DNA from: a virus
Strand: one strand, 5' to 3'
DNA: 30,300 nt
UHGV virus genome: UHGV-1280366
A program made the position numbers and the translations under genes. Under the pieces are notes generated by a model. It saw only the letters and a program-made list of their open reading frames with translations, made no database searches and was not told the DNA's origin. The stretch's first letter is position 1. The number at the start of each line of letters is the position of its first letter. This document shows positions 1 to 26,203 of the stretch, piece by piece.

Positions 1-287
1 CATGATACCAACTCAGGTTAAAACAATGCTTAACAGTGGAGCAACATCAAGAGATTCAGCAGGGAAGAAACAGGTTCGTGTCTTCAATGCAAAATAACTT
101 CCCGCTGGACCCGAACGACAAAAACAATCAGGCAGCGGTAGACCGTTATTTCGCGCAGGATATCGCGCCTTCGTTTTCCATATCTGATCCGCAGAGCATC
201 AATACACTGGTCACCGTCACAACTAAAAGCGGCATGATACCAACTCAGGTTAAAACAATGCTTAACAGTGGAGCAACATCAAGAGAT
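1..287. repeat. 55-bp exact direct repeat, copies at 1-55 and 233-287 (offset 232 bp)
   Basis: Identical strings catgataccaactcaggttaaaacaatgcttaacagtggagcaacatcaagagat at both positions; flanks diverge (tcagc vs cctgc). Copy 1 may extend upstream of the window. Confidence 0.9.
2..97 (+). CDS. 3' end of an upstream virion gene, truncated by the window start; reads ...MIPTQVKTMLNSGATSRD... then stops at TAA 95-97
   Basis: Open frame 2 from the window edge to TAA at 95-97; shares the 18-aa peptide encoded by the 55-bp repeat with the next ORF. Partial, function unknown. Confidence 0.3.
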   Translation: MIPTQVKTMLNSGATSRDSAGKKQVRVFNAK

Positions 288-1223
288 CCTGCGCTGGTTG
301 TCCCGATGGCAAAATTCTACGGTCAGTTATTCGATAATAATCCGGCGGCAGCGGCAACACTTGATAAAAGTACGATGGCATTTTACGGCAAGGTTTACGA
401 TTATTCCCGCGCTGGCGTGCCGGAGGATAAGGCTGTTGATATGGCTTACAGCCAGGTGTTCCAACAGGATGACCGAATGAAACAGATGCTTTCCACTGCC
501 ATGCGAGACAAAAAATATGTCGCGGCGAGGGCAACTGCTGCACAAAATAACGCCAGCAGTCTGACTTCCTTTGGTTCGTGGTCTCCGGATATTACCGATC
601 CAGGAAAATCAAATGCGGCCTATCAGCGAGATTACCAGACAATTTACGATGCTAACTTTGTACAGACAGGTGGCGATGCAGAACAGGCTGAGAAAATGAC
701 CAATGCCATGATCAGAACCACCTGGGGAGTTTCTACGGTTAATGGCAAAGCAGAGGTTATGAAGTATGCACCTGAGGCATTGTACGGAGTAAATAATGGT
801 GCTGGTAACTGGATACAGGGGCAGTGGGAGCAGGAAAAACGCGAGCTTAAATCAAAATCCTTTGGCGGTCCTCGCAGTGATACGGACTTAATACTTGTTT
901 CTGATGGCCTTACGGCAAGGGATAGGAGTTATGCTGTTATGGTTTTACAGCCTGACGCAAACGGAGCGATAGAACCGAGAAATTATATTGGAGAAAATGG
1001 TCTCCCTGTTCGTTTCAAGCCGGATCAACTGACATCTCCAATGTACAGGCAAACCATTCAGTTACAGCAACAGCGTGTTGATGAGGCTAGAGTGCGGAGA
1101 GAAGGCAATCCGCTGCCGCAGTTCAGCAATAAAGATGGATATACTCCTCCAGATCTGACCAAACCATTCGGTTATGGTTCAGCCAATTACCTTCCGAGCA
1201 ATATATACGCAGGGGGCAAATAA
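36..1223 (+). CDS. virion protein, putative DNA-ejection/internal protein (395 aa); start uncertain (ATG 36 or internal ATG 234)
   Basis: Long ORF with ATG start; stop overlaps the next start (TAATG at 1221-1225), indicating translational coupling within the structural operon upstream of the tailspike. Function inferred from position only. Confidence 0.55.
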   Translation: MEQHQEIQQGRNRFVSSMQNNFPLDPNDKNNQAAVDRYFAQDIAPSFSISDPQSINTLVTVTTKSGMIPTQVKTMLNSGATSRDPALVVPMAKFYGQLFDNNPAAAATLDKSTMAFYGKVYDYSRAGVPEDKAVDMAYSQVFQQDDRMKQMLSTAMRDKKYVAARATAAQNNASSLTSFGSWSPDITDPGKSNAAYQRDYQTIYDANFVQTGGDAEQAEKMTNAMIRTTWGVSTVNGKAEVMKYAPEALYGVNNGAGNWIQGQWEQEKRELKSKSFGGPRSDTDLILVSDGLTARDRSYAVMVLQPDANGAIEPRNYIGENGLPVRFKPDQLTSPMYRQTIQLQQQRVDEARVRREGNPLPQFSNKDGYTPPDLTKPFGYGSANYLPSNIYAGGK

Positions 1224-4200
1224 TGCCGATATATGAACAGAATCCTAAAGAGTTGCTTGGCGAGGATATTCAGCAAATAGCAGCACCTGATGACAGTAAT
1301 TTCTATATGGAAACACCTTCTTTGCTTTCTGCTGTGAACCCATTTACCAGTGATCAACGCGTTCAAAGGTCTAGACAAGCAGCATTTCGTATAGATAACA
1401 CGCTGGGTAGCTTTATTGCCAGTGCTCCTTTCAGTCAGTTTGACAGGGTTGAAGGATATAACCCATTTGATAACGATGCAGCAGATATTAAAGGCTATGA
1501 AGATTTTGCAGATTCGTTTATCAACTCCGGTTCGCATGAAGAAACAATGGCAATTAAACATCGAATCGATAAGCAAAGAACAGATAGAGAATATCTATCT
1601 GAAATGGGTGGTGCTGGTACTATTTCAAGCTTAGCAATGGGAATGATAGACCCGGTTAATGTGGCTGCAATGTTCATCCCTGTAGGGGCGGTAGCGCGTG
1701 GAGGAAGTATTGCTGAGACGGCAGGGCGTTTTGCCCTAGCGAATGCTGCTGGTGGGGGAGTATCAGAAGCCGCATTACAGGCCACTCAGGAAGCTCGCTC
1801 ACCGATGGAGAGCGTATCGAACGTTGTTGTTGATGCTCTCGTTGGTGGGATCCTTGGTGCTGGTGCACAGCTACTTGCTGGACCTAGCGCGCGCGAGGCA
1901 GTGGTTAACTCAGTAGGTAATCATTTGCGAGGTATGGATTCTCCTCAAAGCATTGGTGCAGCTCAGGTTTTCAATACCACACTCGATCAGGAACAGCTCG
2001 CTGGACTTGGACTTGCTAACAAAACGTTGAGTGTCACTCCTGCTGGCCGCTTGGCTCAATCACCATCTCTTGTCTCCCGTCAGATTAACCAGCAGCTTGC
2101 CGAAAATAACTATTTCTTCGCCAAAAATGATGAGGGGTTGGCTACGTTTACGGCAGTCGAGACTAAGATTAAGCAATACGACGCCATGCTTTATAAGCAG
2201 ATGGAAGCCACTCGTGATGCTTACCAGCAGTACAGCAAATCTGTTAGCGCCCGCGGCGTGAAGAGGATGAGCTTTATTGATTTCAATGAAGCTGTTGGCA
2301 TGGCTATGCGCCGTGGTGATCAGAGTGATATTCCTGAGGTTTCACAAGCAGCCGCCAGAATCCGCCCCATTTTCGAGACCACAAAAGCCCGTATGCAGGA
2401 ACTGGGGATCCTTCCTGAGGATATCGATGTCGTGACGGCGAAAAGTTATCTTCCCCGCATTTATAAGTTCGATAAGATACTTTCCGACCGCACTGAATTC
2501 AGAGGGCGAATTGCCAACTGGATACAAGGGATTAGTGCCAAAGGTGCTGACAAAGCAGGTCAGCGAATTGAAAGGATAAATTCATTGCTAAAAACTGCAG
2601 AGGAATCGGCACCGCGCGCTGATGCTCTCGCTAGTGAAATCGCTGAAGCGGAGAAATGGTCTGGTAAAAAAATTCTACTTATGGAAGAACTGGATAAACG
2701 AAATAAGCTTATATCTCAGGAGACTGACACACAGGCGCGTCTTACAAGAATAGAAAAAGAGTTGGCCGAGACTTCATCAGAAAAACTTCAGGCAAGAATG
2801 ATGAAAGAAAGCTCTGACCTTAAAACACGCCTTGATGATATAGCGCAGGCAAAGAGTGAGCTTCCTGTCTATCAGCGCCATATGGAGTTGCTGGATAATC
2901 CACGGAAATATCGTTCTGAGCTTCGCCGACTGCAAAAACGGGCAAATTCAACCACAAGGCTGAATGCAAGCCGCGAACGAGCACTGAAGCAGATGGAGCC
3001 TCTATCCCGAGAGGAAGCAGAGGACGCTGCTGACGAGATCGTGAATAAAATAATAGGCGCACCTTCCGGGCTTGTACCAGCCGATATTATCCCAGAGAGA
3101 CTCGTTGGTCGGGCTGGTTTCACTAAAAGCAGAACGCTGCTTATTCCTGATGAGCGTATAGAAGATTTTCTTGAATCAGATGTTAACTACATCATGGAAA
3201 GTTATCTCCGGCAGGTGGCACCAGAAATTGAGCTGACTGCGCAGTTTGGCCGTAAAGATATGGGGGAGCAAATCCGTCAGGTTAGTGAGGAATATACCCG
3301 GCTAATAAAAGAGGCTAAAACACCTAAACGACGTGCAGTTCTTGAGAAGCAACGGGAGGCTGATATTAGGGATATTACGGCTATGCGTGATCGACTGCTT
3401 GGTACTTACGGTGCACCTCAAGATCCACGCAGTTTCTTTGTTCGTGCCGGGCGAGTTGCTAGGAATATTAACTTCCTCCGTTTGCTTGGTGGAATGACTG
3501 TCTCCGCTGCAACTGATCTGATGCGACCGATGATGCAGCATGGCCTGAGAAAATCTCTCGGACCAATGGTAAGCATGCTTAAAAATATGGACTCAGTGAA
3601 AATTGCAACCAGGGATTTGCGAGAAATGGCCGTTGGGCTTGATTATGTCCTGTCTACGCGTACAAAGGCTATAGCGGATCTTACTGACCCCTATAGCCGG
3701 AGAAGCGCCGCTGAGCGAGGTCTGAACTGGATGACGCAGAAATTCGGTAACTGGACGCTGATGAATCAGTGGAACAGCGCACTTAAATCATGGTCCGGGA
3801 TGATAGTGCAGTCGAGGATACTTGACGCGGCTCGCCAAGTTTCTGCTGGTGGCACGCTCTCCAAAAGTGAAATGCGGAAGATGGCACAGGTCGGCATCAA
3901 TGAAGATGTTCTGCGCCGAATCGGGGAGCAATTCGGGAAGCACGGAGAGGATATGGACGGGCTGTTAACCGGGCATAGTCATCTGTGGGATGACCGTTTC
4001 GCTAGAGAGATTTTCCAGTCTGCAGTGCTGAAAGATGTAGACTCAGTGATTGTAACGCCTGGCGTAGGTGATACACCGCTGTTTTTTAGTAAAGAAGGCT
4101 GGAAGATGATCACGCAGTTCAAAACGTTTATCTTCGCACAGCATAACAGGGTGCTAGTATCTGGTATCCAGCAGGGCGATGCTGCATTCTATCTTGGTGC

Positions 4201-4612
4201 GCTTGGCACGATTGCGCTTGGCTCAATGGTCTATATGATGAAACAGAAGTTAAGCGGTCGCGATATCGACTACAGCTGGAATAACCTTGTGAAAGAGGGG
4301 ATCGACCGGGGCGGAATGCTTGGCTGGCTCTCTGAGCCGCTGAATACCGTTGAGAACATAAGCGGCGGTAGGTTTGGTCTTGGCGCGATGTTTGGTGCGC
4401 CTCCGGTATCAAGGTTTCAGAGTCGTAATGCTATTGGTGCTTTACTTGGTCCTACCTTTGATCTTGGCGGTGATGCCGCGACGGTTGCGAATGGTGTACT
4501 TAACGGAGAATTTGACAGCCAGCAAACCCACGCGGTCCGTAAAATGCTACCTTTTCAGAACCTGTGGGCGATATCACCGTTACTAAATAAAGTTGAAGAG
4601 CAGATGAAATAG
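1223..4612 (+). CDS. large virion protein (1129 aa), putative DNA-ejection/internal virion protein
   Basis: 3.4-kb uninterrupted ORF; Gly/Ala-rich hydrophobic segment near residues 130-230, charged coiled-coil-like central region, hydrophobic C-terminal part. Last large gene of the structural module before the accessory island and tailspike. Family not recognised. Confidence 0.75.
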   Translation: MPIYEQNPKELLGEDIQQIAAPDDSNFYMETPSLLSAVNPFTSDQRVQRSRQAAFRIDNTLGSFIASAPFSQFDRVEGYNPFDNDAADIKGYEDFADSFINSGSHEETMAIKHRIDKQRTDREYLSEMGGAGTISSLAMGMIDPVNVAAMFIPVGAVARGGSIAETAGRFALANAAGGGVSEAALQATQEARSPMESVSNVVVDALVGGILGAGAQLLAGPSAREAVVNSVGNHLRGMDSPQSIGAAQVFNTTLDQEQLAGLGLANKTLSVTPAGRLAQSPSLVSRQINQQLAENNYFFAKNDEGLATFTAVETKIKQYDAMLYKQMEATRDAYQQYSKSVSARGVKRMSFIDFNEAVGMAMRRGDQSDIPEVSQAAARIRPIFETTKARMQELGILPEDIDVVTAKSYLPRIYKFDKILSDRTEFRGRIANWIQGISAKGADKAGQRIERINSLLKTAEESAPRADALASEIAEAEKWSGKKILLMEELDKRNKLISQETDTQARLTRIEKELAETSSEKLQARMMKESSDLKTRLDDIAQAKSELPVYQRHMELLDNPRKYRSELRRLQKRANSTTRLNASRERALKQMEPLSREEAEDAADEIVNKIIGAPSGLVPADIIPERLVGRAGFTKSRTLLIPDERIEDFLESDVNYIMESYLRQVAPEIELTAQFGRKDMGEQIRQVSEEYTRLIKEAKTPKRRAVLEKQREADIRDITAMRDRLLGTYGAPQDPRSFFVRAGRVARNINFLRLLGGMTVSAATDLMRPMMQHGLRKSLGPMVSMLKNMDSVKIATRDLREMAVGLDYVLSTRTKAIADLTDPYSRRSAAERGLNWMTQKFGNWTLMNQWNSALKSWSGMIVQSRILDAARQVSAGGTLSKSEMRKMAQVGINEDVLRRIGEQFGKHGEDMDGLLTGHSHLWDDRFAREIFQSAVLKDVDSVIVTPGVGDTPLFFSKEGWKMITQFKTFIFAQHNRVLVSGIQQGDAAFYLGALGTIALGSMVYMMKQKLSGRDIDYSWNNLVKEGIDRGGMLGWLSEPLNTVENISGGRFGLGAMFGAPPVSRFQSRNAIGALLGPTFDLGGDAATVANGVLNGEFDSQQTHAVRKMLPFQNLWAISPLLNKVEEQMK

Positions 4613-5053
4613 CTATTCACAATTAGTGATGGCGTATGTATCAAATATATTGCCATCACTAAATACATACCTATACTCAATCTCTCCGCCAAGGTGAATA
4701 AATGCTTTCATTTGCCTGTTGGAGCAAATGCTCGATTTTGAATAATTTCGCATTACACTCTTTAATTTATTTTCTAAGGTTACATCACCATTATAAACTT
4801 TTGATAAATAGCTGTTGTTGTAATTAAGATGCGCTACAACTAAGAGTTTGTTTAGTATTGCATTTATTGAAACAATAGACATATTATCATTCAATTTTAT
4901 GGGAAGTGACTTTCCTGCTTCTGATGCAATTTTGTTTGCATGTGCACACATATCCTCATTTATTAAATTCTTAAAACATATGTCGTTTGCAAACGAAAAA
5001 ATTGGTAGGATAAACAAAACGGTAGCTGTAATAGCGTGCATCGGCTTAATCAT
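4613..5053 (-). CDS. small hypothetical protein with predicted N-terminal signal peptide (MHAITATVLFILPIFSFA); moron-like
   Basis: ORF in a visibly AT-rich stretch (about 4620-5050) unlike the flanking phage genes; hydrophobic N-terminus ending in A-x-A-like site. Alternative start at 5041. Diverges from the next gene with almost no spacer. Confidence 0.45.
   Translation of the reverse strand: MIKPMHAITATVLFILPIFSFANDICFKNLINEDMCAHANKIASEAGKSLPIKLNDNMSIVSINAILNKLLVVAHLNYNNSYLSKVYNGDVTLENKLKSVMRNYSKSSICSNRQMKAFIHLGGEIEYRYVFSDGNIFDTYAITNCE
4623..4662. repeat. 11-bp perfect inverted repeat (ttagtgatggc / gccatcactaa) with 18-nt spacer
   Basis: Seen directly, at the convergent junction of the 1129-aa gene and the minus-strand gene 4613-5053; no flanking T-tract. 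Confidence 0.6.
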
Positions 5054-5065
5054 TAGGTGACCTTT

Positions 5066-5515
5066 ATGTTCAAGAAGATGATCAACAGATTAATCGGTGG
5101 TAAGGAGGTTAGCAATAAAATTCAACCTCTTATCTTTAAGGATAACTTTTCAGCTTTTGAGTATGCGTGTAAGTATCTTGACACAAGCCTTTCAGCCAAT
5201 AAACCAATGCCAGCCATCATCATACCTGGTCCCAGTGGGGAACAGCCAGTTTTGCTGGATTCTGGAAGACAAAGGGCAATGCTGAAGGTGTGCTCAGCTG
5301 ATGGTGGATTTTTTGTTATTGCCGATTCATCTTACAGCAAAGGACCAAAGCTGAGGATTGGTGATCTTGTTGCTTGGTTGCCTGTGAGTTATGCCGAAGA
5401 ATTAACGGATAAAATAGAAGATCCTCGCTCCGCTATGGTTGGCTTTATATTGGGAACCATTCATCCTGAACTAACATCTACTGGCTGGAAGGGTAAAGAA
5501 AGATTTCGCAAGTAG
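5066..5515 (+). CDS. hypothetical protein (about 149 aa)
   Basis: ORF; track start 5057 is GTG, so ATG 5066 was chosen, preceded by AGGTGA 6 nt upstream; followed by an intrinsic terminator. Confidence 0.5.
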   Translation: MFKKMINRLIGGKEVSNKIQPLIFKDNFSAFEYACKYLDTSLSANKPMPAIIIPGPSGEQPVLLDSGRQRAMLKVCSADGGFFVIADSSYSKGPKLRIGDLVAWLPVSYAEELTDKIEDPRSAMVGFILGTIHPELTSTGWKGKERFRK

Positions 5516-5529
5516 CGTGACATGTCACA

Positions 5530-5553
5530 GGCCGCTTTCGCGGCCTTGTTTTT
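5530..5553 (+). terminator. rho-independent terminator (GGCCGC-tttc-GCGGCC then TTGTTTTT)
   Basis: Perfect 6-bp GC stem, 4-nt loop, T-rich tail immediately after the stop of 5066-5515. Confidence 0.6.
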
Positions 5554-5593
5554 AACGAATGCCACCGCCGCCCGGGTGGGAATCCGCAGACAC

Positions 5594-5614
5594 AAAAAAG
5601 CCCGCGCCGCGGGC
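5594..5614 (-). terminator. rho-independent terminator for minus-strand gene 5620-6252
   Basis: On the minus strand GCCCGCG-g-CGCGGGC followed by TTTTTT (A-run 5594-5599 on the + strand). Confidence 0.55.
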
Positions 5615-5619
5615 TTCTA

Positions 5620-6252
5620 TTAATGCAGTTTATCTTTGCTTATAACCAGTAGTCTGTGGGTATGCACATCTTTATCACTGCCCCAACAGAAATCAGCCCA
5701 CTGGCTATAGAAATCATCCCATGATGTCATGAAGCTAAGAGGTCTATCTTCTTCAGAGCCATCTGAAACGTATACATTATATCCCGGGGTGTTTATAGCC
5801 CAAGAAATCATTCTTTCCCAGAATCTTCTCCCATCGATTGTTTGTTGCTCATCAGATACAACGATCGCATATTGCTCTAGGAAGAACTGAAAAAAAATCT
5901 GAGGCAAACCATGAACAGCACGGTCATGAATAACATTAGGCGTACGCCATACCATGATCTGCGTACATGTTCTTTTGGCTTCGACGATATCTTCCCGAAA
6001 GATTAACTTAACCGCATACACCGTTTCTGGAGTATCGCTGGTAGTAATCATTCTGTAATGATCGCCATTACAAGATTTTACAAGGCGATAACCATAAGGT
6101 GTTGTGAATCCCGGAAGAACGAAATCAACCACACCTTTCGCTAAGTAGCTTTCGGTGTGACTAGTGTTCTTCTCAGACATGTTCAGTTTTCTATCGAAAT
6201 CTGCTTCTGGGATAATGTATGGCATCGCTTTTCTTGTTGTATTTGTTTTCAT
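5620..6252 (-). CDS. hypothetical protein (210 aa), accessory island
   Basis: ORF with ATG at 6252 and GGAGG 6 nt upstream on the minus strand; bracketed by a terminator and an upstream TTACC-N5-GGTAA palindrome. No family recognised. Confidence 0.6.
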   Translation of the reverse strand: MKTNTTRKAMPYIIPEADFDRKLNMSEKNTSHTESYLAKGVVDFVLPGFTTPYGYRLVKSCNGDHYRMITTSDTPETVYAVKLIFREDIVEAKRTCTQIMVWRTPNVIHDRAVHGLPQIFFQFFLEQYAIVVSDEQQTIDGRRFWERMISWAINTPGYNVYVSDGSEEDRPLSFMTSWDDFYSQWADFCWGSDKDVHTHRLLVISKDKLH

Positions 6253-6311
6253 TTCGTCCTCCCATGTTTGGCTACAGGACGCGTTTTGAAGGGAAGATTA
6301 AAAACGCTTTC

Positions 6312-6326
6312 TTACCCGTAAGGTAA
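6312..6326. promoter_or_regulatory. palindromic motif TTACC-cgtaa-GGTAA(TAT), copy 1 of 3
   Basis: Seen directly, about 60 bp upstream of minus-strand gene 5620-6252; same motif at 7372-7386 and 7754-7768. Confidence 0.35.
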
Positions 6327-6391
6327 TATTACGCGAATCTACATCACATCGCCAATGATTATTTTAAAGGCACATCCCTGTGCCGCCGCCG

Positions 6392-7102
6392 TCAGAAGAA
6401 CCCTGCCTTGTCGTTGATGTACTCCGCGTGCGTCTGGATATCACGCAGGCATTTGCTCACACCGACGATGTAGCAGAACATGGTGGTCAGCTCCGCCGCC
6501 GCGCCCGATACGTCGTGCCCGTCTTCCTGTAACTGGTTCAGCAGATTCATCAGCAGTGAGTTTTCCGTCAGGCCGAGAACACCAGACGGAGAATGAATCA
6601 GGCTGCGGTAGCCGGGCTTCAGTGGGGCGCTGTAGGTTTTGTTCTCTATCTTCATTGCCTGCATCACTGCTGATGCTGTGGCGTTGGCTACCTGGTCGGC
6701 AACCATCTTTATGCGTTCTTCCTGCGGGAGCGAGTTTTTAATGTAACTTCCTGTGCGGCGGATCTGAGGAAGAACCTCACCTGTAACCCATTTACGAAAG
6801 CGGTAGGGGATAGTGCCTGGTGTTACTGCATCGCGGCAGCGGAGGATCAGTGTGTAGAGGCCTGACTCGGAGATGATGTTGATCTCTTTTACTCGGCTGT
6901 CAAAAATTGCACGATGTTCATGCCCTATGTTGAACATAGACCTTTCATCATCATCCAGTTTTTCAAGTGATTGGGTGACGTTTTGGATACGCAGCGCACT
7001 ACAAACGTCTTGGGCTACAAACCATGGTTGGCCATCGATAATGATGGAACGGATAGGGTTAACAGATTCAAATTTGAAGATGGCAGTTTGAGCATTAGCC
7101 AT
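6392..7102 (-). CDS. Bro-N / KilA-N family antirepressor-like protein
   Basis: N-terminal region (FKFESVNPIRSIIIDGQPWFVAQDVCSALRI...) resembles Bro-N DNA-binding domains of phage antirepressors; start moved to MANAQ (ATG 7102) with GGAGATAA upstream. C-terminal domain is paralogous to the product of 7418-7675. Confidence 0.7.
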   Translation of the reverse strand: MANAQTAIFKFESVNPIRSIIIDGQPWFVAQDVCSALRIQNVTQSLEKLDDDERSMFNIGHEHRAIFDSRVKEINIISESGLYTLILRCRDAVTPGTIPYRFRKWVTGEVLPQIRRTGSYIKNSLPQEERIKMVADQVANATASAVMQAMKIENKTYSAPLKPGYRSLIHSPSGVLGLTENSLLMNLLNQLQEDGHDVSGAAAELTTMFCYIVGVSKCLRDIQTHAEYINDKAGFF

Positions 7103-7258
7103 GGTGGTTATCTCCACTTAGTGATTTTAATCACCACCGCAACGCCAATTACTGGTGGTGAACTGGACAAGGTTGGCGTACCGGCCTAAGTGGTACCGGC
7201 GTCCTTTCGGACCCCTGCCCAGCCCACCATAATTCGGATATAGCTGTGCTTAACGCAT

Positions 7259-7280
7259 AAAAAAACCACGTCTGGCGTGG
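7259..7280 (-). terminator. rho-independent terminator downstream of minus-strand gene 7418-7675
   Basis: CCACG-ccaga-CGTGG hairpin followed on the minus strand by seven T (A-run 7259-7265 on +). Confidence 0.55.
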
Positions 7281-7371
7281 TATGCGCCACTTAGTAACTC
7301 GGGACGCCAATCCCGGCACTGGATTTTGCCAGTGCCCGATTACTATGGCACAAGAGGAGTGCAATGTAAAT

Positions 7372-7386
7372 TTACCGCAAAGGTAA
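7372..7386. promoter_or_regulatory. palindromic motif TTACC-gcaaa-GGTAA(ATAT), copy 2 of 3
   Basis: Seen directly; between the stop of 7418-7675 and the terminator at 7259-7280. Confidence 0.3.
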
Positions 7387-7417
7387 ATATAAGCACTCCA
7401 TTTGGTAATTGCAAACC

Positions 7418-7675
7418 TTATCTGGTTTGTTTTCGTAATTGTTCGGCACAATAGTCGAGATGTGTTTGCAGATCCTGCATAGACATCTGTGAGCTGGTGA
7501 CGTAGTTAATCAGTGCAGTCAGTTCGGCAAGTGGGCCATCGACATTAAATCCATCCTTATCGAGATCCCGGAGTAATTTCATCAAGTGCGATCCCTCCAC
7601 CAGTGACCTGACGCCTCCCGGCGTGTGAATCCTTTCGGTAAATCCGTCTTCCAGTGGATAGTGATACTGCTGCAT
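7418..7675 (-). CDS. short antirepressor C-terminal-domain paralog (about 85 aa), candidate SOS-regulated antirepressor
   Basis: Product aligns with the C-terminal 65 residues of the 6392-7102 protein (shared IH.P.GV..L.E.S.LM.LL..L..DG..V.G..AELT...Y...D.QTH). ATG 7675 chosen for GGAGAAG about 8 nt upstream; alternative ATG 7690. Confidence 0.6.
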   Translation of the reverse strand: MQQYHYPLEDGFTERIHTPGGVRSLVEGSHLMKLLRDLDKDGFNVDGPLAELTALINYVTSSQMSMQDLQTHLDYCAEQLRKQTR

Positions 7676-7694
7676 CTTAATCTTCTCCATGCAA

Positions 7695-7714
7695 TAACTG
7701 TATGTTTATACAGT
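7695..7714. promoter_or_regulatory. LexA (SOS) box, aaCTGTATGTTTATACAGta
   Basis: Matches CTGT-N8-ACAG with an AT-rich spacer (consensus TACTGTATATATATACAGTA); 5-20 bp upstream of the start codons of 7418-7675; overlaps a TATAAA -10-like hexamer on the minus strand. Confidence 0.6.
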
Positions 7715-7753
7715 AGCAAATAATTTGTTTGCTATCCAGCACGTTTTGCAAAT

Positions 7754-7768
7754 TACCTGAAAGGTAAT
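7754..7768. promoter_or_regulatory. palindromic motif TTACC-tgaaa-GGTAA(TAT), copy 3 of 3
   Basis: Seen directly, between the LexA-box gene and the tailspike gene (about 100 bp upstream of ATG 7872). Confidence 0.35.
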
Positions 7769-7871
7769 ATCTATTCATATTCACAGTCTTTCTATCCATA
7801 TGTGGTTTTTCAGGTAATAGAATAACCAGATATGCGGCGCAACGGGTGCTGCGACTATCTGGAGATTTAAC

Positions 7872-9980
7872 ATGACGGTCTCAACCAAAGTTGACCACAA
7901 CGAATACACAGGTAACGGCGTTACGACATCGTTTCCGTATACTTTTCGAATTTTCAGAAAATCAGACCTGGTTGTTCAGGTGTCTGACCTGAACGGGAAC
8001 GTAACAGAATTGGTTCTGGATACCGGTTATACGGTAATTGGGGTGGGAGCTTATAGTGGTGGTACAGTGGTTCTTCCGTCGCCGCTTGCTGCTGGCTGGC
8101 GAATCACTATAGAGCGTGTGCTTGATGTGGTGCAGGAGACTGACCTTCGAAATCAGGGGAATTTTTTTCCAGAAGTTCATGAGGATGCATTTGACTACCT
8201 GACGATGCTGATTCAGCAGTCTTTTTCTGGTCTATCTCTTGCACTCAGAAAGCCATCACGTTTATCAAATTATTATGATGCTCGTGATAACAGAATCCAA
8301 AACTTAGCAAGCCCAATTCTCCCGAACGATGGTGTAAACCGTAATTTTGTAGAAAACCTTTTTATTGATAAAAGCGCATCTGCTTCTGCATTGCGCTCTT
8401 TGCTGGAAAGCGCAGCTGGGGCTGGAATAATTGGTACATTGCAGGGATTAACCGTTCAGTCAGTTTTAGATAATGTAAAAATCCCACTGACGTCATTCGT
8501 GTTTTCTATTCCTGATGATTTTGCTAATGCAGATTCTTTAGCAGAATATCTTGAAAATAGATGCTATACCGGCACGCAAGTAATAGTACATGTCTCAGCA
8601 GGCACTCATAATTGGAATACTCTAAATAAGATTTTTGGGAAAGAGTGGGGTTTTGGCCGACTTAAATTTGTTGGTGAAGGAATGGATTTGACAATTATTC
8701 AGTTTCTTAAACAGGACGGAATTTATGCTGAAGCAGGTGAGTGTTATGGTCATGCGCCACAGTTTCCCGTGAGTGGTGGTGATATAATACCAATATTTAG
8801 TAATTTAACTATATCAGGAATTGACAGAGATTCAGGAATTGATGATCCATATCTTGATTCAATGGGGATAAGGGCGTTTGACGGCGGTGTTGTTGTACTT
8901 GATGAAAGCGTAAGAATAACTCAGTTTTCCAGGTGTGGAGTTATGGCTGAGAGGCATGGTATAGCTTTTGTTCCTGGGGTTAAAGTCGATACTACAGGTT
9001 CTGATTGTTTCGCTGCCTCTGAAGGTGGTTATATCTATTGTCCAGACTCTACAGCAAGCAACCCGAAAGGTCATTGCTACATCGCATATTCTGGAGGGCA
9101 GCTTTATATGCCTAACTGTATTGCTCAGAATGCAGAGACACACAACTCGTCAAATGTAGGGGGATCTGGTCTTGTGTTGACCGGAAGCAGTTACGCTTAC
9201 GCTATTAATCTTCAAACTAAAAACAATGCTCAACGTGGAATTAGTGTGGCGTTAGGGTCTTTTCTACGAGCTGACGGGTTTACTGAGAGTGAAAATATTC
9301 TACCTGTGACTGTTTCGCAGGGTTCCACGTTGGTTTCTCCAAATTGCACAATAAACAAACCAGATGCTCTTGCGCTTTTAATTGAGAAAGGAGGAAAGGC
9401 ATTTTTCCAGGTAGCAACAACTGATAAGTTTACTATGTATGGTAGAGCAACAGTACAGTCAATGGGGGTTCTTCATGCACCAGATGGCGACATAACGAAC
9501 AGTTCAGGCAATTCAATATCTGCAATTAACTCAACAGTTGACGTTGACAGAACAACTTTCCATGGTTCTCCTGCTGTAGCTATCTATGCCATGGATGGAG
9601 CGATGGTTAAATGTAGCAATGGAGAATCTCAGACAACTACAGGGACAACAATTATTGCTCAAAATGCAAAGGTTATCGCTGATGGCTTTAAGGTAAAAGG
9701 AAATCCATCAATAGGGTTTAGAGCAACTATGTCTGGAATAATTTCTGCGAAAAACACATCAGTTATCAAGGCCGGTCAATATGGTTACTTTTCTGAAAAT
9801 ATGGGGGCATTTATTGATGCTACAGGTGCTACAGTAGGAGATGCTTTCTCTGGTTTTAAAGCAATAAACGGAGCCAGAATTAATGCTACGCAATCAGATG
9901 CTACAGGATCATATACAGGAGGTGCTTATAGCCCATCAGTAAATTTAGCAGATGAAAAACTAACAATAATAATAAAGTAA
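7872..9980 (+). CDS. tailspike / tail fibre protein (702 aa)
   Basis: N-terminus (NEYTGNGVTTSFPYTFRIF...DLVVQV) carries the conserved podovirus tail-fibre/tailspike N-terminal adaptor motif; Gly/Ser/Thr-rich C-terminal 500 aa consistent with a beta-rich receptor-binding domain; GGAG RBS; last late gene before attP. Confidence 0.8.
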   Translation: MTVSTKVDHNEYTGNGVTTSFPYTFRIFRKSDLVVQVSDLNGNVTELVLDTGYTVIGVGAYSGGTVVLPSPLAAGWRITIERVLDVVQETDLRNQGNFFPEVHEDAFDYLTMLIQQSFSGLSLALRKPSRLSNYYDARDNRIQNLASPILPNDGVNRNFVENLFIDKSASASALRSLLESAAGAGIIGTLQGLTVQSVLDNVKIPLTSFVFSIPDDFANADSLAEYLENRCYTGTQVIVHVSAGTHNWNTLNKIFGKEWGFGRLKFVGEGMDLTIIQFLKQDGIYAEAGECYGHAPQFPVSGGDIIPIFSNLTISGIDRDSGIDDPYLDSMGIRAFDGGVVVLDESVRITQFSRCGVMAERHGIAFVPGVKVDTTGSDCFAASEGGYIYCPDSTASNPKGHCYIAYSGGQLYMPNCIAQNAETHNSSNVGGSGLVLTGSSYAYAINLQTKNNAQRGISVALGSFLRADGFTESENILPVTVSQGSTLVSPNCTINKPDALALLIEKGGKAFFQVATTDKFTMYGRATVQSMGVLHAPDGDITNSSGNSISAINSTVDVDRTTFHGSPAVAIYAMDGAMVKCSNGESQTTTGTTIIAQNAKVIADGFKVKGNPSIGFRATMSGIISAKNTSVIKAGQYGYFSENMGAFIDATGATVGDAFSGFKAINGARINATQSDATGSYTGGAYSPSVNLADEKLTIIIK

Positions 9981-10077
9981 GCAATATGCTATAGTTCATG
10001 ACTTATTAATGATAACTATATGCACAAAGCTTTGCACTTGATTGCAATGCTTTGTGCCATTCTATAGTTAAGGTGGA
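9981..10077. other. candidate attP region between convergent tailspike and int genes
   Basis: 97-bp AT-rich spacer with ctatagtt direct repeats (9989-9996, 10061-10068) and a 9-bp inverted repeat GCACAAAGC...GCTTTGTGC; position by analogy to lambda/P22 attP adjacent to the int 3' end. Core not identifiable without attB. Confidence 0.35.
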
Positions 10078-11236
10078 TCACTCCACCTTTTCATCAAGCC
10101 AGTCCGCCCACCACTGCATCATTTCTCTGCGCTTATCTAGATACTGAGCATGGTTGTAAATACCGCGCACAGATCCGCCGTTGGCATGTGCCAGTTGCAC
10201 TTCAATAGCGTCAGCAGGCCATTCATGCTCGTTCATAATCGTGCTGAATTCATGCCTGAATCCGTGACCGCTTTCCAGACCTTCATAGCCGATTTGTTTG
10301 ATCACAAGTAGCACCGCGTTCTCGCAGATTGGCTTCTTCTTATCGTTGCGTCCGGCAAAAACAAACTCTGATACTGGTTTAGTGATGGAGCTTAGCGTAG
10401 TGAGAAGTTCAACCACCTGGTCTGACATCGGGACCACATGAATTTTGCGTCCCTTCATCACACTGGCGTCGATGGTGATAATCCTGTTTTCAAAATCGAC
10501 GTTCTTCCATTGCATGGAGCGAAGCTCTTTCGTTCTTAGGGCTGTGTAGCGTAAAACTTTGGTCGCAATGAGCGATACGATACTTCCTGAAAATGTTGCC
10601 AGTGCTTTGTTGAATGCCGGGATCTGGTCTGCAGGAAGAAACGGGAAGTTCTTCTTGCGGTATCCCTTCATGGCGTCAGCAAGGTCAGGTGCCGGGTTAT
10701 ATTTAGCCCTACCAGTGACAATAGCGTAACGGAAAACCTCGCCGCATCTTCTGCGGGCTTTGTTGGCTCGCTCCATTGCACCGCGATCTTCAAATCTGCG
10801 GATTACTTCCAGCAGTTGCATCGGCTCAATATCCAGAATCTCGAGACCGCCGATGATGGGTAAAATGTCGTCATCAAACATTTTGGCAAGTTCAGTCGCA
10901 TACCCTACAGACCAGACTTGCTTCTTGTGCTCGTACCATTCCTTGTAAATGGCGCTAAAGGAATTGTTGTTAGACGAAGCCTTTTTCGCTTTTACCGGAT
11001 CTATGCCAACCGAGATGTCTTTCCTCGCAGTCCATGCTCTATCCCTTGCCTCCTGCAAAGTCATAAGCGGATATTTTCCGACAGTCAGGATTTTCTCCTT
11101 ACCGTCAATCTTGTAGCGAAGCTGCCATACCTTTTTCCCGGATACAGGGACATAAAGATACAGGCCATTACCATCGAGAAGGCGGTATGGTTTTTCTTTC
11201 GGCTTTGCTGCTTCAATCTGCTTAACGGTTAGCATG
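10078..11236 (-). CDS. int: tyrosine integrase (P4-like, N-terminal arm-binding domain)
   Basis: N-terminus MLTVKQIEAAKPKEKPYRLLDGNGLYLYV matches the arm-binding domain of P4-family integrases; C-terminal region has catalytic-domain features (HGFRH, tyrosine near the C-terminus). Track start 11271 is GTG; ATG 11236 chosen. Confidence 0.9.
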
Positions 11237-11500
11237 GGTAAAAATCCGGTGGGTAAAATTATTTTATCCACTTTTTACCCGTCATGGTGTGCGGCTGTCA
11301 ACGATCTGACGCGAACCATGACGAACCGTGAATATACGGAAGGCTTGATATTCAGGGGATTTTGCGGACTGGTGCGGATGGGAGCGAACTGATAAATGGT
11401 GTCCCCTGCAGACATCTACTTGAGGCAGCAGGGGATTGATTGGAATGGTGTTTTTGAGATGTGAGAAATATTTTACCCGCTATTTTACCCATTGGCGCGG
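11233..11500. repeat. cluster of GGGTAAAA / TTTTACCC octamer repeats around the int start and the int-xis spacer
   Basis: At least five copies in both orientations (about 11235, 11252, 11273, 11473, 11486); possible Int/Xis or regulator binding sites. Confidence 0.4.
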
Positions 11501-11685
11501 CTTAAGAGCTTATTTTTGAATTCACAATGGTCACGATATAACCATCTTGCTCGTCCGTGGATAACTTTGGCTTTAGGCAGGTCGCCGGACTTAATCCGGT
11601 CATAGATGAAGGTTTTACCGAAGCCAGTATCGGCCATGATGAATTTCAAATCAACCAGTGAATCAGGCTGTAGTTCGTGTTGCAT
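11485..11685 (-). CDS. xis: excisionase / AlpA-like DNA-binding protein
   Basis: Small basic protein immediately upstream of int; ATG 11685 with GGAG RBS; winged-helix-like motif (FIYDRIKSGDLPKAKVIHGRARW). Confidence 0.65.
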   Translation of the reverse strand: MQHELQPDSLVDLKFIMADTGFGKTFIYDRIKSGDLPKAKVIHGRARWLYRDHCEFKNKLLSRANG

Positions 11686-11730
11686 GAGTGCTATCTCCAA
11701 ATAGGGAATCAAACCTGCAAATCAGGCAAT

Positions 11731-11751
11731 AAAAAAACCGCATTGATGCGG
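11731..11751 (-). terminator. rho-independent terminator on the minus strand upstream of xis
   Basis: CCGCA-ttga-TGCGG hairpin followed on the minus strand by seven T. Confidence 0.5.
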
Positions 11752-12071
11752 CGATGGTAGGTCTGGATATCTTGATAAATGAAAATGCCTCATCGAGTGT
11801 GAGGCGGTGTGATTTCTTTATTTCCACTCTTAATGTTTGTCAGTGAATGGTTTCTCCATCTCCATTAATGCCTTATTCATCTCATTTCGTAGCTCTATAG
11901 CCATCCTGACGGCTTCAACTTGTGCAGGATGTCGGTTAATTGCTGGAGAATATCGTCGGGAGCGAAGGATTGAGAAAACAAAGATAATGCAAGCAACTAT
12001 CTGAATTGCATTGCATATTATTGATACAATGTGGATTGCAGCCATCTACTACCCCAAATAAAAAACCGCCA

Positions 12072-12239
12072 TCAGGCGTCTTGGTGTTCTTTCAGTTCTT
12101 CAATTCGAATATTGGTTACGTCTGCATGTGCTATCTGCGCCCATATCATCCAGTGGTTATAGCAGTCGTTGATGTCCTCTGCTTCGATAACTCTGTTGAA
12201 TGGTTCTCCATTCCATTCACCTGTGACTCGGAAGTGCAT
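12072..12239 (-). CDS. small hypothetical protein (55 aa, MHFRVTGEWNGEPF...), not in the ORF track
   Basis: ATG with GGAGATGATAA RBS; stop lies within a terminator-like hairpin (CGCC-tgat-GGCG plus T-run on the minus strand). Confidence 0.4.
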   Translation of the reverse strand: MHFRVTGEWNGEPFNRVIEAEDINDCYNHWMIWAQIAHADVTNIRIEELKEHQDA

Positions 12240-12482
12240 TTATCATCTCCATAAAACAAAACCCGCCGTAGCGAGTTCAGATAAAAGAAATCCCCGCGAG
12301 TGCGAGGATTGTTATTGTCTTTTCTTCGTGCATTTGTCGCACTTTCGGCACCATCCAGATAGGCACATCCGTCCGCAATTAACACATATAGGCCACATCA
12401 TTTTTCCTCTTTTGGTTTATGAATCTGAATGGTCATGCCGCTTTGAGTGGTGACTACAATGACAGAACCAGGCTGAAGACTG

Positions 12483-12680
12483 TTAAGATTGAATGCTTCG
12501 TAAAACGAATCCAAGGCCAGCGCTTTTTTTATTCTTTCGGTTCCACCAACGCCATCCCTTGCTACAGGCTACACTGACAATCCACTGCCCACTCCTGTAA
12601 GCCATATAAAACCAGATGAGCAAAACCTGAAGGAAGGCTATCCAGTCAATAATCGTATATTTCGCGAAGGAGTCCATCAC
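12483..12680 (-). CDS. small hydrophobic hypothetical protein (65 aa)
   Basis: ORF abutting the Lar-like gene (stop/start overlap at 12677-12680); hydrophobic, Trp-rich. Confidence 0.3.
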   Translation of the reverse strand: MMDSFAKYTIIDWIAFLQVLLIWFYMAYRSGQWIVSVACSKGWRWWNRKNKKSAGLGFVLRSIQS

Positions 12681-12973
12681 TTCACCTCCTGCGGAGTAGC
12701 CTTTACAAGCACTGGTGTAAATCCATCTTCATTAAGGTTATGAATATAGACTTCTGTTCTCCTGCGCTCTTCAACGTTTAATATTGTTTCTGGATCATAA
12801 ACCCATACTTTCATTCGACTATTCCATGAAGAAATCGCTTCAGATCTAGTTCGTTTTTCTGGTCCTTGGGCACCACATTTGCATGACACATAGCGCATTT
12901 TCCCTCTGATACTGAATGAGTATCCGATGTTAAGCACAGTGGAACCACAGAATGGGCAGCGATATAGATTCAT
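12677..12973 (-). CDS. Lar-family restriction-alleviation-like zinc-ribbon protein
   Basis: N-terminal CPFCG...CKCGA...AISSWNSR resembles the Lar family; overlaps upstream gene stop (12970-12973). Confidence 0.5.
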   Translation of the reverse strand: MNLYRCPFCGSTVLNIGYSFSIRGKMRYVSCKCGAQGPEKRTRSEAISSWNSRMKVWVYDPETILNVEERRRTEVYIHNLNEDGFTPVLVKATPQEVK

Positions 12974-13554
12974 AAATCATCCACCTTAGGCGCAGCTGAG
13001 ACAGCAACATTCCAGAACTCAGAAAACATATTGTATGCACCAGATAGATTGGAAGTGGCATACCCTCCAAGCTCACTTCTAATCTGAACGGCTCTCATCA
13101 TTTCCGGTGTTAACTCCTTCGGCACCATAACCCAACCATCCGGAGTTACCGGAGAGTTGCCATTTACATCGAAGTTTGGCTCTGCGTCCTGAACCAGGAG
13201 GATGTAACCATTCTTGGCAGTATCAAGTTCTAACGCCTCGGTGACGGTACCGAAATAGCGATTACCTAAATCCGCATCACAAGTGCTTACATCAATGGAA
13301 ACCTCCATGCCTTCGATTAATTCTGGCAAGTTGTAAGTTTGGCTTACAGGTTCTGCTCCCAGTGATGCCAGTGCAATTCGTGCCAGCTCACGCACAACTT
13401 CAGGGGGCGCGTGACGGTCATTCAGGTCATCCCACAGACGTAGCATGTCATCGCTATCAGGGTTAACATCCTCATTAGTTCCGGCCAGCGCACTAATAAC
13501 CTCATCGGCTGCTTCAATAATTTTCTGTGCCTGTTCTCTGGTAATAGTGGTCAT
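12970..13554 (-). CDS. hypothetical acidic protein (194 aa)
   Basis: ORF with ATG start in the early-left operon; no family recognised. Confidence 0.55.
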   Translation of the reverse strand: MTTITREQAQKIIEAADEVISALAGTNEDVNPDSDDMLRLWDDLNDRHAPPEVVRELARIALASLGAEPVSQTYNLPELIEGMEVSIDVSTCDADLGNRYFGTVTEALELDTAKNGYILLVQDAEPNFDVNGNSPVTPDGWVMVPKELTPEMMRAVQIRSELGGYATSNLSGAYNMFSEFWNVAVSAAPKVDDL

Positions 13555-24983: not shown

Positions 24984-25387
24984 CAATGCTTTTAATTCAA
25001 CCTGGATTTGGCCTTAGCATCAAAAAAGGGCACATGTTTGGCGAGAAAGAGTCTCAACGAAAAATGGTGTCGATACAGTTGCCATTTATCAGTATTTGTT
25101 GGCTAAACAGGGAGGCAACAAATTATTGGTATACATGCGCCAGAGCAGCATTTAACGACCCTGACTGGTTTGTGAATAACCACCACGCAGTTCGTCAGGC
25201 AAAGAGAAAGGCCAATACGACATACATGAAGGCGTATCGAAAAGCATGGAAAGAACACCGGGATCGATACCAGCAAGACATGGAAAAGCTTGAATCAGAA
25301 AACATGGAATTAAGACGAAAGCTTGGTGAAGCAAAACGAGACATTGATGCTTACAAGCGACTTTTTAATGGTGAAAGCCATGCTTAG
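24980..25387 (+). CDS. hypothetical nin-region protein (NinX-like by position)
   Basis: ORF between ninE and ninF; track start is GTG, ATG 24980/24986 with GAGGAA RBS; its 3' part lies inside the duplicated unit. Confidence 0.5.
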
Positions 25388-25556
25388 CCCATCCCAATCC
25401 CTTCAATACCAGAAAGAAAGCGTCGAGCGGGCTTTAACGTGCGCTAACTGCGGTCAGAAGCTGCATGTGCTGGAAGTTCACGTGTGTGAGCACTGCTGCG
25501 CAGAACTGATGAGCGATCCGAATAGCTCAATGTACGAGGAAGAAGACGATGAGTGA
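25380..25556 (+). CDS. ninF: NinF (copy 1)
   Basis: [58 protein letters not shown] matches lambda NinF as recalled. Confidence 0.8.
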   Translation: MLSPSQSLQYQKESVERALTCANCGQKLHVLEVHVCEHCCAELMSDPNSSMYEEEDDE

Positions 25557-25671
25557 TTACCTGAAATGGTATCTCTGCCACCGCTGGTTAATTAAGTTTG
25601 CTGTAAAAGACTGGATGACAGCGGATGCCAACAAGCTTAAGCAAAGAGAAAGGCCAATACGACATACATGA
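25549..25671 (+). pseudogene. truncated chimeric copy of the 70-aa gene created by the duplication junction (MSDYLK...[14 protein letters not shown])
   Basis: Same start context as 25991-26203 but the frame runs across the junction into a new stop after 40 codons. Confidence 0.45.
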
Positions 25672-25821
25672 AGGCGTATCGAAAAGCATGGAAAGAACAC
25701 CGGGATCGATACCAGCAAGACATGGAAAAGCTTGAATCAGAAAACATGGAATTAAGACGAAAGCTTGGTGAAGCAAAACGAGACATTGATGCTTACAAGC
25801 GACTTTTTAATGGTGAAAGCC

Positions 25822-25998
25822 ATGCTTAGCCCATCCCAATCCCTTCAATACCAGAAAGAAAGCGTCGAGCGGGCTTTAACGTGCGCTAACTGCGGTCAGA
25901 AGCTGCATGTGCTGGAAGTTCACGTGTGTGAGCACTGCTGCGCAGAACTGATGAGCGATCCGAATAGCTCAATGTACGAGGAAGAAGACGATGAGTGA
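25822..25998 (+). CDS. ninF: NinF (copy 2, identical duplicate)
   Basis: Identical sequence to 25380-25556, shifted by 442 bp. Confidence 0.75.
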   Translation: MLSPSQSLQYQKESVERALTCANCGQKLHVLEVHVCEHCCAELMSDPNSSMYEEEDDE

Positions 25999-26203
25999 TT
26001 ACCTGAAATGGTATCTCTGCCACCGCTGGTTAATTAAGTTTGCTGTAAAAGACTGGATGACAGCGGATGCCAACAAGCTTAAGCAAAGAAAAGACTATTA
26101 CTACGCCAGAATGAAGGAAAACTACTGCTCAATTCGCACTCGCATATTTATTAAAAAAGACCTTCAGTCAATTCTTCAATTGCGAGGGAAGGTAAATGGC
26201 TAA
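25991..26203 (+). CDS. hypothetical nin-region protein (70 aa)
   Basis: ORF with ATG overlapping the ninF stop (ATGAGTGA); intact only in the second copy. Confidence 0.5.
   Translation: MSDYLKWYLCHRWLIKFAVKDWMTADANKLKQRKDYYYARMKENYCSIRTRIFIKKDLQSILQLRGKVNG

Follow-up and report, generated by a model that had tools for sequence, protein, structure and literature searches.

A 97-bp tailspike–integrase spacer as a very probable gap between converging genes, with attP of an IntS-TorI module upstream of int

Introduction

Does the short spacer between a tailspike gene and an integrase gene that converge on it hold the phage attachment site, and does the adjacency of the two genes tell whether a sequence represents a free phage or an integrated prophage? 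These questions are raised by a 30.3-kb stretch of viral DNA (UHGV-1280366, 30,300 nucleotides; referred to as the window), which encodes virion internal proteins, antirepressors, a tailspike, an integrase, and lambdoid early-left, immunity, replication, nin, Q and lysis functions, and ends just before the terminase region. The original prediction read the junction as a phage-form genome with an intact attP in the spacer, on the grounds that integration leaves int at one end of the prophage and the last tail gene at the other. The analysis described here makes it very probable that the spacer is the gap between the converging tailspike and int genes and not attP, and that int belongs to an IntS-TorI module in which attP is located upstream of int.

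The tailspike–integrase spacer

The locus is made up of three adjoining features.

7872 to 9980, plus strand: tailspike gene, 702 amino acids, last gene of the late operon, with a T7-gp17-like N-terminal adaptor and a beta-helix receptor-binding part
9981 to 10077, no strand: spacer with convergent genes on both sides, free of an ORF, a tRNA fragment and an att core
10078 to 11235, minus strand: IntS-type tyrosine integrase gene, 385 amino acids, assigned by Pfam matches and by identity to known Ints

The two genes converge precisely at the positions that had been given, the tailspike TAA codon (9978-9980) and the int stop codon (10078-10080) enclosing exactly 97 bp in the ORF list. The spacer had also been correctly described as lacking a tRNA fragment and gtr or other conversion genes. 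The gap contains no ORF of at least 50 amino acids, so that no conversion cargo lies between the tailspike stop and the int stop, and a conversion gene is absent because 97 bp are too small for one. No tRNA fragment was found in 9981-10077, and ARAGORN detected no tRNA gene across the whole 30.3-kb window. The short direct and inverted repeats reported for the spacer were recovered by a repeat search, and the 130-nt spacer region folds better than shuffled sequences (z = -5.0 on the plus strand and -5.5 on the minus strand; 0 of 200 shuffles folded as well).

The spacer is composed of two parts. The left 42 bp are A+T-rich and were seen only with the same tailspike C-terminal module, namely in the window and in the prophages of E400634 and K56-43-un. 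The right part of about 55-64 bp (from 10014 or 10023) belongs to the int module; it is always found beside intS, in over 1,000 of the 5,426 E. coli genomes searched, K-12 (KplE1) being one of them. The full spacer is restricted in this genome set to the prophages of E400634 (nearly the same sequence) and K56-43-un, and most matching genomes align only rightwards from 10014 or 10023, beside intS. Similarity is lost at these positions because the cargo differs, and not because host DNA begins there.

A search of host genomes with the spacer had been suggested as a way to identify attB and the crossover core. The 5,426 E. coli genomes yielded no attB-like or empty-site match in either near or distant search modes, and no homology breakpoint falls inside the spacer in any of the ~2,400 matching genomes. 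Furthermore, none of the six copies of the arm-type motif GGGTAAAA present in the window lies in 9981-10077.

Within the tailspike, residues 1-165 match PHROG tail spike/fibre families and residues 1-128 match the Dpo31 tailspike (PDB), and the match to Beta_helix is weak. The C-terminal 1.36 kb of the gene (nt 8616-9980) are 96% identical to the annotated tailspikes of E400634 (L001) and K56-43-un (L007). The protein is chimeric, with a junction near 8616; its N-terminal ~165 amino acids represent the T7-gp17-like adaptor, in place of which the tailspikes of E400634 and K56-43-un have an N-terminus of the P22 head-binding type. As seen in three independent contexts, the left 42 bp of the spacer travel as one unit with the receptor-binding part.

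The attachment site upstream of int

The attachment site and the excisionase gene occupy the other side of int.

11236 to 11395, no strand: int-proximal arm of attP (the arm that would become attL beside argW), with arm motifs and the likely int promoter
11396 to 11411, no strand: attP core ATGGTGTCCCCTGCAG, the reverse complement of the 16-nt core CTGCAGGGGACACCAT of KplE1, HK620 and Sf6
11412 to 11492, no strand: torI-proximal arm of attP (the arm that would become attR), with minus-strand arm motifs at 11471-11478 and 11483-11490
11485 to 11685, minus strand: torI/hkaC, excisionase (recombination directionality factor), 66 amino acids, assigned by identity and PHROG

The integrase matches the Pfam families Phage_integrase, Phage_int_M and Arm-DNA-bind_3 (E 1e-25 to 1e-39), and it shows a protein identity of 99.5% with E400634 IntS, 98.7% with Sf6 Int and 98.4% with HK620 Int. 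At the DNA level, int and its surroundings are ~95-97% identical to HK620, Sf6, CUS-3, IME10, N7, HF4s and the intS of ~2,400 E. coli genomes. The longest int ORF opens with a GTG at 11271, and homology places the start at the ATG at 11235, which gives the 385-amino acid length of IntS, HK620 Int and Sf6 Int. The torI product has the same sequence as E400634 TorI (WP_001163428.1) and HK620 HkaC, and it matches the PHROG excisionase family.

On the minus strand, int (10078-11235), the core (11396-11411) and torI (11485-11685) follow one another in this order. The core ATGGTGTCCCCTGCAG is matched exactly at a single place of the window, 160 bp upstream of where int starts. [quoted passage not shown] Six copies of the arm-type motif GGGTAAAA are present in the window where 0.6 would be expected, a tenfold excess, and five of them flank the core: those at 11236 and 11251 (plus strand) and 11273 (minus strand) on the int side, and those at 11471-11478 and 11483-11490 (both minus strand) on the torI side. 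The sixth copy (10858-10865) lies inside the int coding sequence, and an attP repeat is annotated at the corresponding position of HK620 (829-839). The 265 bp between the int start and torI are identical at 255 positions to the HK620 region that is annotated as attP repeats and excision promoter, and the torI-side arm corresponds to the HK620 attP repeat 1441-1463. A TTGACA element at 11303-11298 is likely to belong to the int promoter.

This arrangement agrees with the annotation of related phages. The GenBank records of HK620 and Sf6 show the attP core on the upstream side of int, in the interval that separates int from hkaC (Sf6 gene 18), and the CUS-3 record, which is in prophage orientation, lists the attL core followed by int, neuO and the tailspike. 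In KplE1, the 16-nt core is duplicated at the prophage borders, in argW, and the intS promoter overlaps attL and the arm sites (PMC2951348). The KplE1 recombination module is common to HK620 and Sf6 (PMC3509656), and in Kapi1, Sf6, HK620 and KplE1 attP lies between int and xis/torI, the Kapi1 att, which the core of the window matches, measuring 17 nt (PMC8787464). With attP between int and torI, these two genes come to lie at opposite ends of the prophage. Hence attP, its core, the arm motifs, int and torI are all located in the window, with the attachment site on the upstream side of int. Judging from the near-identity to these experimentally studied modules, the phage represented by the window would be expected to integrate into argW and to excise from it.

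Gene order in integrated prophages

The position of the crossover can be read from lysogens. Partial matches to 11250-11800 among the 5,426 E. coli genomes end at 11411 on the int side and begin at 11395-11397 on the torI side. Since int-side matches end at 11411 and torI-side matches begin at about 11396, the crossover falls at 11396-11411. The placement of attP in the spacer is thus contradicted by breakpoints that lie at the core, with the arms and torI likewise found away from the spacer. In E400634, 13C1065T, EH08-18-36 and CUS-3, the match extends up to 11411 and then runs into argW.

E400634 illustrates the integrated gene order. Its chromosome aligns without a break with window 8616-11411, which covers the tailspike C-terminus, the spacer, int and the int-proximal arm, and continues into the argW body and yfdC. 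At the other prophage end, 40 kb away, the alignment runs from window 11391 onwards, with torI adjoining the host csc genes. The complete order is host, torI, early genes, lysis genes, head genes, then the tailspike and intS facing each other, argW and yfdC. The tailspike–int junction is therefore internal to the integrated prophage.

The tailspike–int adjacency recurs in other prophages. In a survey of 80 IMG/VR loci that encode an IntS-type integrase (L016-L095), sequence upstream of int was available in 39, of which 30 contain a complete argW and seven contain a phage-form junction like that of the window; the latter include the complete phage genomes IME10 and HK633. Seventeen loci with a short tailspike–int gap (63-223 bp) are integrated at argW, the complete argW adjoining int. 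The att core is not included in 41 of the 80 loci, and many predicted prophage contigs begin exactly at the int start codon, which means that automated boundaries cut attL and argW off the IntS module.

The rule that the two ends of a prophage are taken by int and by the last tail gene, respectively, holds for the lambda/P22 type, but not for the IntS/argW type, as seen in E400634 and the 17 IMG/VR prophages. Because the tailspike–int junction persists in integrated prophages, the adjacency of the two genes is uninformative on phage versus prophage form. The view of the window as a phage form with an intact attP can be kept, although neither on the basis of adjacency nor with the spacer as attP: the window is called a phage form only because its true attP is uninterrupted, on the evidence of an unbroken int–core–torI segment and of colinearity with HK620 1-13172. 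A chimeric assembly that joins two prophage ends was considered as well and rejected, given that the tailspike–spacer–int junction recurs in two independent complete genomes and that int–attP–torI is colinear with HK620, Sf6, IME10 and N7.

These relationships can be combined in a simple mechanism. Integration at argW would split int from torI, and int would stay beside the tailspike at one prophage end, where it would be expressed from its own promoter in the attL arm. The tailspike–int junction would then be unchanged across the virion, circular and integrated forms. In agreement with such a scheme, integration has been described to separate int from torI and from the early-left promoters, so that int depends on the attL promoter (PMC2951348).

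K56-43-un offers a different context for the same spacer. Its 97-bp spacer is identical to that of the window and comes after the same tailspike C-terminus; next to it stands an 84-bp intS remnant derived from the 3' end of the gene. Beyond the remnant lie lambda P-arm DNA, the lambda core GCTTTTTTATACTAA (L007 6595-6609) and then ybhB and bioA. The tailspike of K56-43-un thus stands at a prophage end, with the crossover at the lambda core 0.5 kb past the spacer and not in the spacer. The 84-bp intS remnant, together with a hairpin of the spacer (H1, described below), lies beside a lambda-type att region (L007 6200-6610; window 10023-10161), and the same 139-bp segment (window 10023-10161) is also present in phages 434, Gally and JEP4. 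The remnant and H1 are the fossil of a past exchange of integration modules.

Cargo at the tailspike–integrase gap

According to the original prediction, relatives carry gtr or other conversion genes at this position, which is true of about half of them. The window's tailspike N-terminus as a query found no matches in the IMG/VR loci, a result that indicates that the adaptor domain is not of the P22 head-binding type; the search was successful when it was redone with the P22-type head-binding domain. A P22-type tailspike was found within 5 kb downstream of int in 64 of the 80 loci. In 34 of these 64 the gap holds 0.5-3.3 kb (gtrABC-sized or acyltransferase-sized), and in the remaining 30 it is free of cargo, the tailspike stop lying 63-223 bp from the int stop. 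Among named phages, HF4s carries gtrABC, Sf6 carries oac, CUS-3 carries neuO and HK620 carries a gene for O-antigen modification; acyltransferase cargo is present in the loci L002 and L003. Phage Louie has an empty gap of ~240 bp. The cargo-free gap of ~100 bp is the commonest single state, and the window is no exception.

Hairpins at the spacer

Two hairpins account for the right part of the spacer and its border with int.

10022 to 10057, no strand: hairpin H1, a 9+5-bp stem with one mismatch and a 6-nt loop, GCACAAAGC-T-TTGCA CTTGAT TGCAA-T-GCTTTGTGC
10070 to 10089, no strand: hairpin H2, AAGGTGGA TCAC TCCACCTT, overlapping the int stop codon (10078-10080) and followed on the plus strand by TTTTCATC

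H1 is palindromic and can therefore fold on either strand; it has 14 paired positions and a folding energy of -20.4 or -20.7 kcal/mol on the two strands (z about -4.5). Over 1,000 E. coli genomes, K-12 among them, retain H1 beside intS, and the homologous position of HK620 (38289..23) is annotated as the terminator of the prophage excision transcript. H2 forms an 8-bp stem (-12.2 kcal/mol, z -5.0). A few individual relatives suggest selection for structure: IME10 contains an H2 variant, AAGGTGGCA TTA TGCCACCTT, in which both arms are changed and pairing is preserved, H1 of one IMG/VR locus (L047) is a perfect 14-bp stem, and two others (L019 and L056) have an unrelated GC-rich hairpin at the H1 position.

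A consensus promoter and terminator scan flags neither H1 nor H2, their T-tracts being weak; H2 goes unflagged because only four of its eight tail bases are T. A permissive-threshold Rfam search of 9500-12000 returned no RNA families. Across 56 relatives, 88% of the H1 and H2 alignment cells are paired and covariation does not exceed that of shuffles, so the conservation of the hairpins could be plain sequence conservation among close relatives. Lambdoid late transcripts are Q-antiterminated and may ignore such hairpins.

Taken together, H1 is presumed to terminate int transcripts, in line with the HK620 annotation, and H2 presumably terminates the late (tailspike) transcript. The spacer would most likely serve as a two-way transcription stop, or insulator, between the late operon and int. 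As neither hairpin is picked up by the scan or by Rfam, covariation stays at the shuffle level and the support for structure comes from isolated cases, we infer this role and do not claim it as established. According to such a model, H1 would end int transcripts, H2, with TTTTC after it on the plus strand, would end the late transcript, and the paired stops would limit antisense read-through in both directions.

Alternative explanations

The idea that the spacer is attP itself, with the core in 9981-10077 and integration parting the tailspike from int, has some appeal, because in lambda and P22 attP lies past the int 3' end and before the late or cargo genes, the spacer contains inverted and direct repeats, and the tailspike of K56-43-un stands at a prophage end (although the crossover occurred at the lambda core 0.5 kb beyond). 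It is nevertheless scarcely credible, with no breakpoint in the spacer among ~2,400 genomes, a spacer that is internal to the E400634 argW prophage, no empty-site match in hosts, no copy of GGGTAAAA, and the core, arms and directionality factor all found elsewhere. It has also to be asked whether an uninterrupted attP need signify a free phage, as the window could represent the internal junction of tandem prophages or a prophage integrated via another site. An uninterrupted int–attP–torI junction does occur in 17 of the 5,426 E. coli chromosomes, and in one of them, ET151 (L008, NZ_CP100996.1 1513336-1521885), the frameshifted intS and the presence of three att-related places suggest that prophages at argW are arranged in tandem or nested. 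Such junctions are rare, however (17 against ~2,000 split ones), the 30.3-kb window consists entirely of phage DNA without host sequence, and the seven phage-form IMG/VR loci include the complete phages IME10 and HK633; an origin of this kind is considered unlikely.

The origin and role of the spacer itself can be viewed in other ways, too. It might be the deletion scar of a lost conversion gene (gtrABC, an acyltransferase or similar), a history compatible with a terminator role, in which case the left 42 bp and the TATAGTT/AACTATA repeats would be the remnants. The position is a known hot spot for cargo, with 0.5-3.3 kb in 34 of 64 relatives, yet no search matched the left 42 bp to a cargo gene or flank, and they go with the tailspike C-terminal module in three independent contexts. 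In addition, short spacers are as common as cargo, so that the empty state may equally be ancestral, and a scar is judged improbable. The minus-strand minimum-energy fold extends H1 by AACUAUAG/UAUAGUU arms to a duplex of ~22 bp, and H1 with these 8-bp arms (10013-10020 and 10063-10070) could be imagined as a long duplex in read-through RNA, acting as a sib-like RNase III retroregulator of int. Nearly all relatives lack the outer left arm, which is part of the tailspike module, and there is no covariation beyond shuffles. Moreover, as attP is on the other side of int, H1 remains linked to int in both states and lacks the state-dependent control that defines sib. With an unconserved outer stem and an element that is int-linked throughout, sib-like retroregulation is highly unlikely and was rejected. 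The gap between converging genes, beside an IntS-TorI module with attP upstream of int, remains by far the best explanation.

Composition of the rest of the window

The relationship to P22-like phages assumed at the outset does not extend to the virion genes, as the virion module (1-9980) is not P22-like. The internal virion protein of 1129 amino acids (1223-4612) shares 97.7% identity with its counterpart in the unclassified Escherichia phage EC.W1-9, but only 36.6% with that of TL-2011b and ~40% with those of Vibrio podophages. The early region, from ~10 kb to 30.3 kb, is lambdoid and resembles HK620, Sf101 and mEp043, and no phage record by itself reaches 80% coverage of a 25-kb window query. 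The combination of an EC.W1-9-like virion module with a lambdoid early region indicates that the phage is a hybrid.

Just upstream of the tailspike, the minus strand carries three adjacent ORFs (6392-7690), which encode a Bro-N antirepressor of 241 amino acids and products of 100 and 90 amino acids, the latter two ORFs overlapping each other. The 90-amino acid ORF and the C-terminal part of the antirepressor share the PHROG families phrog_450, phrog_15539 and phrog_1760, and the ORF looks like a partial duplication of the antirepressor. In the nin region, 25199-26093 is a 442-bp tandem duplication (2.0 copies, 99% matching, with a 300-nt stretch 100% identical), which could be recent or an assembly artefact.

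H1 is kept at the edge where variable cargo and tailspike modules join, and it might be a preferred recombination boundary among otherwise unrelated temperate podoviruses, a proposal that is to be regarded as quite doubtful. If true, H1 would drive the exchange of tailspike and conversion-gene modules, and in this phage it would have joined the EC.W1-9-like virion module to the lambdoid early region.

Implications and comparison with known systems

For the IntS/argW module, gene order around int is no guide to whether a sequence is a free phage or an integrated prophage, and attP has to be looked for on the upstream side of int rather than in the gap to the tail genes. Applying the lambda/P22 rule in genome scans leads to misplaced attP sites and miscalled boundaries for thousands of E. 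coli and Shigella prophages. The value of these observations is mainly corrective and no new biological question is opened, since the module, its core, its regulation and the adjacent cargo hot spot have already been described in the literature.

The closest known system is the IntS-TorI argW module of KplE1/CPS-53, HK620, Sf6, CUS-3 and Kapi1, with which the window shares the same integrase (98-99.5%), TorI/HkaC (100%), the core, and the order of int, P' arm, core, P arm and torI. The hairpin downstream of int that is annotated as a terminator in HK620 is H1 of the window. Only the neighbour differs, which in the window is the tailspike of a non-P22 virion across a cargo-free gap of 97 bp, and the difference is of no functional relevance. 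The P22-like moron locus (gtrABC, oac, neuO, O-antigen modification) occupies the same position, with H1 as its right boundary, and is empty in the window.

The likeness to lambda and P22 is more general and includes a tyrosine integrase, arm-type and core-type sites, an excisionase, and an int gene that closes the leftward early operon, facing the late or accessory region. Lambda and P22 have attP 3' of int, and there integration parts int from the tail end of the late operon, whereas in the window attP lies 5' of int. K56-43-un has the lambda-type arrangement with the same tailspike and spacer as the window. Finally, lambda sib lies beyond attP and is unlinked from int in the prophage, whereas the hairpins of the window stay with int in both states.
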